Made by a program: the position numbers and the translations under genes. A DNA stretch of 64,000 nt from Eledone cirrhosa (taxonomy: Eukaryota), in the NCBI GenBank assembly GCA_964016885.1, contig OZ024741.1:369768001-369832000 (forward strand), given 5' to 3'. Each line of letters opens with the position of its first letter. Position 1 is the stretch's first letter. A model generated the notes under the pieces. It made no database searches and had not been told where the DNA came from. It was given only the letters and a program-made list of their open reading frames with translations. Below, in pieces: positions 3,509 to 57,845 of this stretch.

Positions 3509-3998
3509 AACGGCAATGAATTAGTTTTGCAAGGTTTTTTATATGAAATTGTGTGTCGAAACAAATATTGTTATACTTGGGGAGTGTCATATTTGTGTAA
3601 TATTGCCAGAATTAATAACAGAACACACTCACTGTTTGGTTGGTTTTCGCTTCTGTGTCTTTTATATCGGTAACCTAATTTACTCGGTCCTCAATGTTGC
3701 CATTGACTGACCGACGGTCAAAAATAATACAGACACAATATGGACACAATCACATATATATAGTTTATCATAAATCTTTCGTTGCACATTTGCAACATCG
3801 TCAGTGGTGTTATATTTTCCTCCTGTTGTGTTGTATGTCTACGCCATTTTTATTCAGACTGAATAAAAATGGCGTAGACATACCATACAACGGGAGGAAA
3901 TAATAGCACCATTGACGATGTTGCAGATGTGCAACGAAAGATTTATGATAAACTATATATATGTGTTTGTGTCCATATTGTATCTGTATTATTTTTGT
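3509..3998 (-). mobile_element. Fold-back PLE pLTR (family B) with HHR and the first codons of the ORF
   Basis: Palindrome centred on 3858 (arms ~3719-3857 / 3859-3998). Its reverse complement matches 50515-50805. The minus strand reads MTLPKYNNICFDTQFHIKNLAK from ~3590. HHR core CTGACGA..GAAA on the minus strand at 3777-3804. Confidence 0.85.
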
Positions 3999-4238
3999 CA
4001 TAGTTCTTTCGTCACACACTCTGTGACCTCTTCAGTGACTGGGGATTCCTTTCTTTGTTTCTGTGCCTCTCCTTTGTTCTGTCCTACGCCATGTTGTTTC
4101 TGTGTGTGTGTTGTGTGCTCAGTCTGCGCATGCGCCACATCCGGGTGTCTGTGTGTTTATGTTCATTTATTTATTTGTTTATTTACATGTTACTGGTTGG
4201 TTGTTTGTTCTATGTGTGTGTGTGTTTTCATTTTGTCC

Positions 4239-54904: not shown

Positions 54905-57383
54905 ATGAGAAATATGGTTAAGGTATTTTTTATATTCATCTAAAATCATTCTATAATAATTTTATGTAAGAACCTTTGTTACATTATGTTCCAAGCACGA
55001 GTTTAATAACGAGGAAGTATCTTTCATTAGAAATAAGGGTTAAACACGATGTAACTTAACAACCAGAACCACAACAAGCACTCACCCGTGTTTTTATTCA
55101 TTGTAAATCATTCTAACGATCTCCAGATATATGGAGAACGTTGAACATTAAGTAATGACGTATATACATCTAACAAACGCACGCACACAAACACATACAC
55201 ACACAGAGGAGAGAGAGAGAGAGAGAGAGAGAGAGAGAGAGAGAGAGAGAGAGAGAGAGAGAGAGATACACCCATATATATTCAATGCTTCATATTGTTA
55301 TACATAATAATTATATTTCATGAGATATGTTCATCAATATATGAATTATACAAGTGCAAGTACAATCACCCTCCCTCTCCCTCTCTCTCTCTCTCTCTCT
55401 CTCTCTCTCTCTCTCTATATATATATATATATATATATATATATATATATATATATATATATGTATAAATGAAATTGCTGCACACTATTATATATAGCAA
55501 TATTTATGATATTATATTGAATATCTGATTTCATTACTATTTGTATATATCATACATTTCATATATATGTATATATATATATATATATATATATATATAT
55601 ATATATATATATATACACATATATATATATATATGTGCATGTGTGTGTATATATATATATATATATATATATATATATATATATATGTGTGTGTGTGTAT
55701 ATATATATATATATATATATATATATATATATATATATATATATACATATGTGTGTATATGTGTGCGTATGTATGTGTCTGTCTATGTCTAATGTAAATA
55801 CAGAATCATATGTGTACACATATTTACATATGTATATATGTAAGTAATAGTGGGCAAAATTGGATAGACATAGAAAGCAGTGAAAATTTATTATAATTAC
55901 TCAATAATTTGAAAAGGAATCTGGTTGATAGGTTATTCATAATAAATGACACACAATGGAGGTGGTGTGGAGTGAGGTGGGGGAAGAAGGACATGAGAGA
56001 GCGATAGATACAGACCTCCCCCTCCTCCTCCTCCTCCTCCTCCCCCTCCTCCTATTTCTGTTCGCGTGAGTGATCCATGATGGTTGATATATCTTATCTA
56101 CATAGTGTTAATAGATGACGGGGTAGGGTAGCAGCGAGAGAGAGAGAGAGAGAAAGTGAGTGAGTGAGAGAGAGAGAGAGAGAGAGAGAGAGAGAGAGAG
56201 AATGAGAGAGAGAGAGAGAGAGAGAGAGAATGTGTGGTGGAGTAAAGACGGAAAGAGAGAGTATGGGAGAAGGGGAAATATATCGAGAAAGAGAGAAAGA
56301 GAGAGAGGGGGGATGAGTAGTGGAATAAAGACGGAAAGAGAGAGTATGGGAGAAGGGGAAAATATATCGAGAAAGAGAGAGAGAGAAAAGAGAGAGAGAG
56401 AAAAGAGAGAGAGAGAGTGACAGGGAGCAAGGGATGGAGAGGGAGGAGGCGAGTGAGAGAGGATTGTGTTACATGATAGAAAATGACAATAGTTAACGCT
56501 TAAAGATCGGATTTTAAACTATCGTAAAGTCGGTACCCCGACATCTTATTAAACTGCGAATATAGAATTGGAAAAAATACAAAAGACACATTTATTTATA
56601 ATTTAAAAAAGGGTAATTATTTACATTTACGACATGTAAGTATATATATATATATATATATATATATATATATATATATATAACTGCGAATATCTGTTTC
56701 TCTCTTTCTCTCTTACTGCTCCCCTGTTCTCTCTGTTTCTCTTACCTTCTTTCGTCCCCTCTGTCAGTTAACACTTTCTCTCGACTGACCTCCTCCTCGC
56801 ACTTCCACTCACTCACTCTCTGTTTCTCCCCTTCTCACTTCCTCCCGTTCGCTAGGAGAGGGATTCTTTCTTTCTCACATCCCCTTCACAGCGAAAGGTC
56901 TGTTTCCTGAGCGCTCATGATATTCACCCAGATTATGCTGATCCGATAACCATGTTGCTTGTTTTTCTTCCCATCTTCGGTTTGCTTTTCCTCCAATGTT
57001 GTTTACTTGTCTCACTCGCTTTACGCGTTTCACTTGTCCCAATAGCTTATTTTAGTTATTGCTCGCACCAACCTGAGGTATATGATTTTTAATGCGATGA
57101 AATACCAATGATCGTTGGCAAATCACTGATGAGGGACTAATTTTATAATATGTATTCCATGTGCAACCATGCAGTATTCTTCTCCCCATGTTTTTCATAT
57201 ATATATATATATATATATATATGTAGATAAATCTACCAAAATATACAGTAGTGTCCAATCCATATGAAGAACTCAATGTAATCCAAATATCATGAAGAGA
57301 GAAGATGCATTCAAACATTTTCGATATAAATCATAGGAAAAATCATATGTATATATATATATATATATGTGTGTGTGTGTGTG

Positions 57384-57845
57384 TGATGGTAGCTTAGATG
57401 CTTCCATAGGTGGTATGCCGGTTGAGCACTCTATGCTCTTGCAGAACAGAGTATGATATAATATAAAACGAAAAATCAGTGATGTATCTGAACTCAATTT
57501 ATTGTGTGTTACAGTTGTTTCACCGGCGGACAGCTCGAGACACGATCATTGTGTGGATCTGTCTGATTCTGGATTCGCAGGTTCGACGGATACGTCTAAT
57601 GATTTCGGAGCAAATTTTCTCATTGTAACACACAATAAATTGAGTTCAGATGCATCACTGATTTTTTGTTTTATATATATATATATATATATATATATAT
57701 ATATATATATGTGTCTGGTGGTAGCTAAGAGCTTCCATAGGCGGTATGCCGGTTGAGCACTCTATGCTCTTACAGAGCAGAGTATGATAGAATAAAAAAC
57801 GAAAAATCAGTGATGCATCTGAACTCAATTTATTGTGTGTTACAA
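57384..57845. mobile_element. Fold-back element (arms ~57463-57513 / 57624-57675) plus a direct partial copy at 57712-57845
   Basis: aaaaatcagtgatg.atctgaactcaatttattgtgtgttaca occurs three times, once inverted. It shares atcagtgatgcat...caatttatt with element I. Confidence 0.8.

Follow-up and report, generated by a model that had tools for sequence, protein, structure and literature searches.

The 64-kb window of the Eledone cirrhosa genome analyzed here (the whole stretch of 64,000 nucleotides, whose positions are used throughout) contains many short non-coding palindromes together with coding Penelope-like elements (PLEs). The original prediction described about ten sequence-unrelated palindromes. 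Alignment of the arms bore out an inverted repeat at 11 of 11 named centres, with arms of 53-293 bp that are 89-100% identical, and differences are present in 10 of the 11 arm pairs. The palindromes are not all unrelated, since they fall into eight families (F1-F8). Those centred at 8136, 17691 and 20338 form one family (F2), and those at 24395 and 57570 are related to each other (72-86%). The outer ends adjoin (TA)n, some of them through (CT)n, as had been claimed. Each family has two fixed 3' ends, a short one (S) and a long one (L), 37-111 nt apart. Most palindromes had been described as having one longer arm, and in 8 of the 11 copies the longer arm is the fixed tail of its family. The exceptions are 3858, where the right arm is cut off by a neighbouring PLE at 3995, and 24395 and 33640, where both sides end at or near the short end.

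The F1 palindrome (3510..3997, centre 3858; arms of 139 bp, 92.8% identical) has a left arm, sense minus, that represents the whole pLTR to the long end, and its right arm stops at 3997 at the junction with the neighbouring PLE. It is 88.5% identical to the pLTR at 50514-50806. Family F2 is represented at 8082..8268 (centre 8136; 55 bp, 98.2%) and 17634..17826 (centre 17691; 57 bp, 98.2%), both with the short arm left and the long arm right, and by another subfamily at 20192..20392 (centre 20338; 53 bp, 98.1%), which has the long arm left, the short arm right, and a 21-nt spacer. The F3 palindrome at 11046..11503 (centre 11320; 189 bp, 96.8%) is a Hydra-type PLE end with the long arm left and the short arm right, and its centre coincides with an Initiator-like motif (TCACT) in the parent. 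F4, from a PLE with a Neptune/Nematis-type linker, lies at 17876..18486 (centre 18201; 288 bp, 100%), with the long arm left and the short arm right, followed by (CT)n and then (TA)n. F5 (18601..19292, centre 18891; 293 bp, 98.0%; short left, long right) derives from a non-coding tandem unit of ~620 nt with a hammerhead ribozyme (HHR) motif. The F6 palindrome (23921..24137, centre 24057; 73 bp, 98.6%) is another Hydra-type PLE end, long arm left and short arm right. In F7 (24262..24512, centre 24395; 103 bp, 94.2%) both arms end at or near the short end. F8 (33505..33808, centre 33640; 79 bp, 88.6%) belongs to a non-coding tandem unit of ~530 nt and has a 122-nt spacer. The F7-related palindrome at 57400-57681 (centre 57570; 63 bp, 93.7%) has its long arm left and a 110-nt spacer, and beyond a TA tract it is followed by a second long-end arm at 57712-57846, the whole feature covering 57400..57846.

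The window also holds coding PLEs. One with a broken RT/GIY-YIG ORF occupies 3995..8005 on the minus strand, with HHRs at 4035-4001 and 7683-7649. Its inverted pLTR arm lies at 7767-8005 (HHR 7812-7846, plus) and stops at the short end, after which (TA)n begins. A 5'-truncated PLE on the plus strand at 8302..11013, with its long end left and its short end right, has an RT and GIY-YIG ORF at 8931-10370, an inverted arm at 8343-8961, and HHR cores at 10865 (plus) and 8495 (minus). The 3' pLTR of a coding remnant at 48018..50806 (plus) is F1 sequence with an HHR core at 50573-50600; this remnant stops at the short end, with TA next. Hydra-type RT and GIY-YIG remnants lie on the minus strand at 31195..32923, and the RT part has 77-78% amino-acid identity to ORFs bearing F3 ends elsewhere in the genome.

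Families F1, F2, F3, F4, and F6 are the 3' ends of coding PLEs, three of them Hydra-type (F2, F3, and F6) and two with a Neptune/Nematis-type linker, with clades assigned from motifs described in PMC8557442. The proposed PLE origin is thus supported for five of the eight families, which are joined to RT and/or GIY-YIG ORFs. RT plus EN ORFs are linked to F1 through F4, while for F6 only an EN with CxCx5C was seen. F1 occurs in 4,147-bp tandems with RT/EN (loci L221 and L222). The F4 parent has a 777-aa RT/GIY-YIG ORF, the only one above the Pfam RVT_1 cut-off. The F2 and F3 ORFs, which have no Pfam match and were assigned from motifs and tblastn, contain DKT, YRDD, and a CxCx5C-type linker. One F2 locus (L225) has all of the Hydra-clade marks (CxCx5C linker, no CCHH, DKT, (TA)n target). 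At an F3 locus (L216), DKT is present and one Cys of the linker is replaced, and the linker is intact in the window ORF at 31195. The parents of F2, F3, and F6 share with the Hydra clade (PMC8557442) a C-terminal GIY-YIG without CCHH, the CxCx5C linker, the RW motif, (TA)n insertion, and an HHR, and in F2 and F3 DKT replaces DKG. Placed there by motifs, they reach 3.5-4.5 kb with long 3' UTRs, whereas under 3 kb is described for that clade. Partial, pLTR-forming tandems running past L into the ORF start were found at one F3 locus (L314) and four F4 loci, and none were seen for F2 or F6.

F5 and F8 are non-coding head-to-tail, retrozyme-like units whose upstream sequence continues into another copy of themselves. 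The suggestion of non-autonomous passengers is supported for these two families. For F5 both the tandem and the HHR were seen, with no locus having two whole HHRs in consecutive units; for F8 the tandem was seen without a whole core and without a link to an ORF. Shared geometry is the one feature that would tie F5 and F8 to PLE enzymes. A tail-to-tail arrangement of F8 was rejected, as the locus that gave it (L230) is a chimera and 30 more loci show the tandem unit with outward ends. No parent was found for F7: there is no ORF upstream of it at four loci (L231, L232, L233, and L385) or in a 4.4-kb F7 pair.

A descriptor search found 13 type I HHR motifs in the window, compared with 0-1 per block shuffle in 30 shuffles. 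The descriptor matches the F3, F6, and F7 references. Even when relaxed it misses those of F1, F2, F4, and F5, whose HHRs were identified by eye; two are U3-A8 variants, a natural covariation of the core (PMC3088659). Calling the palindromes hammerhead-bearing was too broad, as a whole core is kept in only about 4 of the 11 window copies. These are the left arm at 3858 (F1 core 3804-3777), 11320 (F3 HHR 11407-11455 plus, core 11232 minus), 24057 (F6 HHRs 24044-24015 minus and 24070-24099 plus), and 18201, where F4 has a U3-A8 core variant with a weak stem I. The F2 window copies keep only the 3' half of their HHR, which differs from the Hydra-clade description in being a U3-A8 variant with a long stem II insert. 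The centre of the F5 palindrome at 18891 begins just beyond the predicted HHR cut of its parent. The cores at 24395 and 57570 are decayed, while the F7 core is intact in other copies, and at 33640 (F8) no whole core was seen, only a GAAA/stem III/UH half motif. In single-strand folding, z was below -2 for one of six HHR motifs. No hammerhead family was among the 150 listed of 162 Rfam matches in the window, and the matches listed were dismissed as miRNA-type chance matches to hairpins or microsatellites.

The predicted outward HHR sense holds for the arm HHRs and for the coding elements at 7.8 and 10.9 kb (7683 minus/7812 plus; 8495 minus/10865 plus). Outside F1-F8, 257 inverted repeats were screened; an outward-pointing HHR is present in 54, an inward one in 1, and HHRs of both senses in 2, and 200 have none. 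Nine cases were classed as inward. Of the eight inspected, three consist of arms directed into a shared TA tract. Another four are not inward-facing palindromes: three have a neighbour's HHR in the flank margin, and one (L137) is a loose composite match. The eighth (L273) is a diverged repeat without explanation. The ninth is 3858 itself, with the neighbour's HHR at 4035.

Junctions were examined in 2.06 Mb of the genome, at loci chosen by exact motifs from the window copies (mostly on one contig, C1) and with references masked for TA-rich stretches. F2 copies were located by exact patterns, and 5' ends were taken from BLAST to one reference copy per family. The arms are head-to-head at 218 of 221 junctions, and the other three are tail-to-tail because the arms meet in a TA tract, which supports head-to-head polarity as a genome-wide rule. 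Among the first 100 exact matches listed, neighbours less than 6 kb apart stand in minus-then-plus order 29 times for F3 and 23 times for F4, and in plus-then-minus order 0 times for either. The 218 insertions comprise 182 with L and S ends, 9 L+L, 8 S+S, and 19 others. In nearly all cases TA-like bases come next after S and L in the element itself, and 781 of 842 S/L ends adjoin a microsatellite, supporting the proposed shared route into TA tracts. No TSD is readable because both ends are in (TA)n. Raw Illumina reads from three other samples with the same species label also show TA after S and L, and they contain opposite-strand joints linking 1447-1453 to 1484-1544 of a single-arm reference. 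Read-end pile-ups at 17686/17696 and 1442 fall on AATT sites and were interpreted as RAD restriction cuts; 5' ends were therefore mapped without read depth.

The arms are fused at variable 5' points, centres differ copy by copy, and arm length is continuous from ~30 nt to over 4 kb, so the idea of a distinct class of hairpin elements was not upheld. Of the 180 scorable L+S insertions (35 of whose junctions have gaps over 12 nt), 94 are symmetric, 22 have a longer L arm, 40 have an S arm that extends further in the 5' direction, and 24 have an L arm consisting of the tail only. Unique sequence is present in each arm of 64 of the 180, or 41 of 145 (26+15) by strict criteria. Such sequence is impossible from one cDNA folding back and possible by priming from both target ends, and thus favors the latter, one of the two options originally offered. 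We consider it probable that the palindromes are very short head-to-head 3'-end insertions of PLE families and their non-coding tandem relatives, and that each was probably generated afresh on insertion by priming from both (TA)n target ends.

The other option was fold-back, in which one cDNA (or antisense RNA) would fold and be copied into the inverted arm, with the second target end only capturing the product. Self-priming on an antisense template has been proposed (PMC3846280), many centres lie at short self-complementary motifs, and 116 of the 180 L+S insertions, with the S arm contained in the L arm, fit fold-back equally, which counts against two-end priming as the sole fit. In addition, 36 of 218 junctions are not L+S. 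The 7-nt subfamily tag of F2 is equal between arms in 52 of 78 insertions, compared with 8.8 after shuffling (maximum 21 in 2000 shuffles). This points to one template for both arms, and matching tags are also predicted by fold-back or gene conversion. However, fold-back does not account for the arm-unique sequence, including the tail-only L arms, and it gives no reason for the fixed S end of the second arm. Furthermore, among 14 F2 insertions whose L arm is short, 12 have an S arm that nevertheless extends to the same 5' hot spot. As a general route fold-back is therefore improbable, while it may make part of the symmetric class.

Less likely still is a self-propagating, non-autonomous mini-element, in which a master palindrome would be transcribed and re-inserted whole. 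F2 is very abundant (27,597 exact 24-mer matches), 254 of 265 arms extend less than 300 nt upstream of S, both arms end in one 25-nt zone in 64 of 86, and F5 and F8 are truly non-coding tandems. A palindromic RNA copied whole would fix the centre, whereas centres and spacers vary per copy, and long copies with upstream coding sequence also carry four of the most frequent F2 tags. MITEs or other TA-targeting DNA transposons are likewise small, non-coding, hairpin-forming, TA-flanked, and high in copy number, but this identity is largely refuted. The inverted repeat is not terminal, since the tail extends beyond it. The position of the centre varies, some copies have a single arm or span several kb, and the arms lead into RT/GIY-YIG ORFs in five of eight families. 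Neither terminal inverted repeats at both ends nor a fixed length was found. The identity of the arms at 18201 (100% over 288 bp) and the absence, among the reads and contigs aligned, of one spanning the window's own loci are what fold-back artefacts of library preparation or assembly would give. The chance of this is negligible given the differences in 10 of 11 arm pairs, the family-specific S/L rules that the ends follow, and the recurrence of opposite-strand joints in raw reads of three other samples.

In priming from both target ends, a PLE protein would cut both strands of a TA tract. L would serve as the start for one 3'-OH and S for the other, with either a single RNA or two RNAs of one source as template. 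Each cDNA would end prematurely or by run-off at the RNA 5' end, and the ends of the two would be joined, often via a few matching or extra bases. Where the cDNAs overlap, the result would be a palindrome tailed on one side; where they do not, an inversion lacking a palindrome; and where they are long, the classic inverted-pLTR element. The (CT)n tracts probably grew by slippage from element ends finishing in CTC. Tentatively, and with slightly more doubt than belief, the commonest short forms could be run-off copies primed at S and L of the promoter-proximal pLTR. The stopping of 5' ends at Initiator-like motifs (TYAGTC in F2, TCACT in F3), where they pile up, would then be accounted for. The pile-up is a hint of run-off at the start of the RNA, with an RT stall at hammerhead stem II as the alternative reading. 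Taken by itself the Initiator evidence is weak, with YYANW at a frequency of 0.033-0.070 per base and boundaries picked post hoc. F1 has no Initiator-like motif at its 5' ends. The 5' ends of F2 are too diffusely spread around the predicted HHR cut (S-17) to be claimed as a pile-up there, with ~6 of 34 listed short L arms starting within 3 nt of it.

L1 twin priming starts cDNA from both target strands and yields a 5' inversion once the two products are joined, but its second priming site varies and there is little overlap between the cDNAs. In the E. cirrhosa insertions the second site is fixed near the first, and the cDNAs would usually overlap, giving palindromes. PLEs with an inverted 5'-truncated pLTR and a one-sided tail are known from Adineta Pen2a (PMC3846280), a general scheme (PMC8557442), and D. 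virilis Penelope (PMC2377424). These EN+ PLE insertions and the present ones have in common a head-to-head inverted 5' copy, junction palindromes, a tail at one end, strong 5' truncation, partial tandems, a pLTR HHR, and microsatellite targeting. The E. cirrhosa insertions are mostly 100-700 bp without an ORF and have tails of 37-111 nt, compared with 30-40 nt in the published description; the 218 junctions here also give counts of L+S pairing and of arms that do not overlap. In vitro, the PLE protein of Anolis Poseidon PAc cuts and extends both strands, and two RNA start sites bound the tail (PMC11167929). Cutting and extension of both strands (inferred here), an AT-rich target, and two internal RT starts bounding the tail are thus shared. 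That study reports no strand difference in the start site and leaves the inverted arm without explanation, while here each site has one arm in 182 of 199 junctions with clear ends.

The accessible portions of work on non-LTR animal retrozymes (PMC7229834; bioRxiv 10.64898/2026.07.22.740005) describe units like those of F5, which is likewise non-coding and arranged head to tail, apparently with one type I HHR in each unit. The tandem unit of F8 resembles them but has no whole core. Retrozyme units described there are ~220-400 nt, compared with ~620 nt for F5 and ~530 nt for F8, and loci here have 1.3-2 units. Head-to-head insertion with S/L ends was not found for retrozymes in these portions, and "inverted" has 0 matches in the text of PMC7229834 available.

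The layout of the palindromes is the short extreme of the published PLE layout and is not new itself (PMC3846280, PMC8557442). The origin of PLE inverted pLTRs and tails has been called open (PMC8557442, PMC3846280, PMC11167929), and no report of PLE twin priming or minimal palindromes was found in the literature covered, mainly freely accessible papers. The E. cirrhosa genome offers short insertions in the tens of thousands, and their junctions distinguish two-end priming from the self-priming already proposed in print. They also provide precise positions for mutagenesis in the in vitro system now available. In genome annotation, such stubs belong under PLEs or retrozymes and not under MITEs. 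A bolder possibility, to which we give a little less than even weight on the basis of the sequences, is that PLE integration obligately uses two primers, the cut strands going one each to S and L. With promoter-proximal use both cDNAs would run off, giving strong-stop-like palindromes whose centre is the transcription start. If so, a single reaction, also borrowed by retrozyme-like units, would account for the mini-palindromes as well as for the inverted pLTR and the one-sided tail, and the start site of each family would be readable from DNA alone.

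The palindromes of the window are real. Self-BLAST gives inverted repeats at all 11 centres of the original prediction, with arms of 53-293 bp that are 88.6-100% identical. Several families are present as predicted, but there are eight rather than about ten: F1 (centre 3858), F2 (8136, 17691 and 20338), F3 (11320), F4 (18201), F5 (18891), F6 (24057), F7 (24395 and 57570) and F8 (33640). With a type I hammerhead (HHR) descriptor, the window yields 13 motifs and each of 30 shuffles 0-1. Only about four of the 11 copies retain the whole core.

Self-BLAST also shows further inverted-repeat centres at 7742, 29458, 44830 and 63583 and large inverted pairs at 8343-11017 and 26841-28518. 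A twelfth palindrome of like type is found at 63457-63710, with a 104-nt spacer, an outward HHR (63562-63508, minus strand) and a right arm of the long-end type; copies elsewhere reach into a CT-rich upstream region. Facing 324-bp arms, 95% identical and 1 kb apart (26841-27164 and 28195-28599, HHR 28599-28531 on the minus strand), are a tail-to-tail arrangement spanning inserted DNA; TA tracts and another HHR element lie between them. An old inverted repeat (29381-29530, 73%) adjoins a TA tract, and a hairpin with 38-bp arms (44788-44873) lies in CA-rich DNA without TA flanks. The window is rich in microsatellites and in remnants of RT/GIY-YIG sequence, and Pfam finds RVT_1 and/or GIY-YIG domains in 8 of the 14 ORFs that were tested. 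One of these is a LINE (37013-40294, plus strand) that is unrelated to the palindromes; its 1,093-aa open frame has endonuclease, RT and zf-RVT domains and is preceded by ORF1-like frames (34975-36849). A tRNA-like Rfam match at 58033-58103 (32 bits, above the gathering score) is perhaps a SINE head.

The families are new members of known Penelope-like element (PLE) clades together with retrozyme-like passengers. The predicted PLE origin holds for F1, F2, F3, F4 and F6, which are linked to ORFs for RT and/or the GIY-YIG endonuclease (EN). F1 forms the terminal repeat (pLTR) both in the element at 48018-50806 and in 4,147-bp tandems carrying YVDD, a CxxxxCxxC linker and GIY-YIG. F2 follows, at a distance of about 1.3 kb, an ORF with DKT, YRDD and CxCx5C, and of the first 30 loci 4 extend to this ORF within 1.5 kb. 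The elements flanked by F3 are 4.3-4.5 kb long and have an RT with 77-78% identity to the 32066 ORF of the window; one F3 copy continues beyond the long end and enters an ORF start bearing an RWR motif. F4 flanks a 777-aa RT/GIY-YIG ORF, and F6 lies behind an EN having CxCx5C. The motifs of F2, F3 and F6 agree with those given for the Hydra clade in PMC8557442, and the placement is based on these motifs. No such ORF link was found for F5 and F8, which run on into further copies of themselves (unit length about 620 nt in F5 and 530 nt in F8), or for F7, in which the HHR has a long stem II and the loci examined hold no parent. HHRs of other families lie at 27894-27812, 23643-23702, 60415-60444, 62853-62778 and 24867-24844. 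The core reads U3...A8 in F2 and F4 and in the motifs at 27894 and 60415, and U3-A8 is a covariation that PMC3088659 reports as natural.

A near-intact PLE (13999-17528, minus strand) has an RT/GIY-YIG frame of 795 aa preceded by a frame of 434 aa, and its pLTR (17462-17619) recurs at 12118-12281. F1-clade ORFs have asparagine-rich inserts in the N-terminal part (window 6141-7535; locus L221:4167-5843), like those of Adineta Penelopes (PMC3846280). In locus L227 (G000:C4:11821001-11831000), each unit of a 2.85-kb tandem array contains an F6 and an F2 palindrome, which multiplied passively with the unit. Head-to-tail arrays of 420-480-bp units, with up to 5.7 copies at 99%, occur in loci L279 (7310-10000), L280, L294 and L300 and are possibly further retrozymes.

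Copy numbers were counted in the 3.0-Gb Eledone cirrhosa genome. Exact 23-30-mer matches number 11,381 for F1, 27,597 for F2, 5,911 for F3, 2,045 for F4, 12 for F5, 129 for F6, 124 for F7 and 2 for F8, all lower bounds from a single subfamily tag per family; a DNA search gives 2,713 F8 candidates, 40 of them scored. Eighteen evenly spaced 10-kb loci contain 23 inverted repeats, of which 16 are flanked by TA at either end, so the window is about twice as dense but not an outlier. The HHR is outward in four of these and inward in none, in agreement with the predicted orientation.

Every family has two fixed 3' ends, short (S) and long (L), separated by a tail of 37-111 nt (F1 58, F2 80, F3 91, F4 37, F5 111, F6 66, F7 88, F8 99). 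TA-like bases follow both ends inside the element, except at the F1 reference ends. Junctions were surveyed over 2.06 Mb in 385 sequences that had been selected by motif, chiefly from contig C1, with overlaps removed by flank. A microsatellite adjoins 781 of the 842 arms terminating at S or L; of the 47 (CT)n ends, most belong to F6 or to the short end of F4, sequences that themselves terminate in CTC. Head-to-head fusion was borne out in 218 of 221 scored junctions (five more at a locus edge were excluded), the other three being arms that face a common TA tract. Among the matches listed, minus-then-plus order outnumbers the reverse by 29 to 0 in F3 and 23 to 0 in F4. The head-to-head junctions pair L with S in 182 cases, L with L in 9 and S with S in 8, and 19 have an arm terminating elsewhere. 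F3 pairs are 60-4,479 bp apart with a cluster at 208-271, so the short palindromes form the lower extreme of a continuum. In the window, insertions of different families abut in series within expanding TA tracts (17619-19396 and 8009-11553), suggesting that each insertion supplies fresh targets. The 3' end of one coding PLE (3995-4001) lies neither at S nor at L within TA repeats but about 6 nt past its predicted HHR cut, and there it is fused with the right arm of palindrome 3858.

The junction counts favour priming from both cut target ends, each starting its own cDNA at S or L, over a single cDNA that folds back; the original prediction named both routes. Fold-back would leave the second arm contained within the first. 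Among 180 L+S insertions (two wrapped F8 tandems excluded), 94 are symmetric to within 15 nt and in 22 the L arm is longer; these fit either explanation. However, 40 have an S arm that extends beyond the L arm on the upstream side, with the tail present only in the L arm, and 24 have an L arm consisting of hardly more than tail. These 64 asymmetric insertions, mostly plain and some complex when inspected by eye, have sequence unique to each arm and therefore need one cDNA primed at L and another at S. Stricter limits, which remove 35 junctions with gaps >12 nt, leave 41 of 145. Both arms bear the same F2 tag in 52 of 78 insertions (8.8 when shuffled), and their tags differ at no more than one position in 68 (15.8 when shuffled), indicating a common source of both cDNAs. 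Raw Illumina reads from a separate study (three samples, four runs) were compared with an F2 copy that has a single arm, and in them both S and L are followed by TA. They also contain opposite-strand joints, 15 listed in at least one run and several in all three samples, many connecting 1447-1453 with 1484-1544 of the reference; no read among those compared spans the window's own loci. Twin priming is known for L1.

The 5' ends may reflect run-off from an RNA start. In F2 both arms terminate 42-66 nt upstream of S in 64 of 86 insertions, and where the L arm is short (14 insertions) the S arm nevertheless stops between -50 and -62 in 12. Against 20 long copies, F2 5' ends peak 11-12 nt from the anchor, at the A of TYAGTC and immediately inside it, and 84 of 99 S arms lie within 13 nt. 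Among short F3 arms (17 S and 25 L, a small sample), none passes the A of TCACT, a motif conserved across subfamilies, and four end exactly on it. F4, F6 and F7 have a similar, looser pattern, which is absent from F1. A YY1-like AAAATGGCG motif of the F1 pLTR (3866-3876) is located some 10 nt inward of the 5' ends that are commonest in F1. The Drosophila virilis Penelope pLTR holds an internal promoter with an Initiator (PMC2377424), and Adineta Pen2a has an Initiator-like TCACT (PMC3846280). With these precedents, run-off is a reasonable inference from the position of the stops, although Initiator-like motifs are common by base rate. In F2, moreover, the stop lies next to stem II of the hammerhead, and RT stalling at that stem might account for it instead.

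The palindromes are well explained, and their layout is already known. Head-to-head inverted pLTRs with palindromes at the junction and an optional tail are described in PMC3846280, which proposes self-priming on an antisense template. In PMC8557442 an inverted 5'-truncated copy, insertion into (TA)n and a tail of 30-40 bp count as general features, and the mechanism is termed open. PMC11167929 describes cutting and extension of both strands, with two start sites bounding the tail. The retrozyme literature was also compared (PMC7229834; bioRxiv 10.64898/2026.07.22.740005). The accessible text of an Octopus repeat annotation (PMC13282606) lists active PLEs and does not contain the word hammerhead. 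No paper found in the literature search states two-end priming for PLEs. The value of this analysis lies in the junction counts for two-end priming over fold-back and in a testable idea about start sites.
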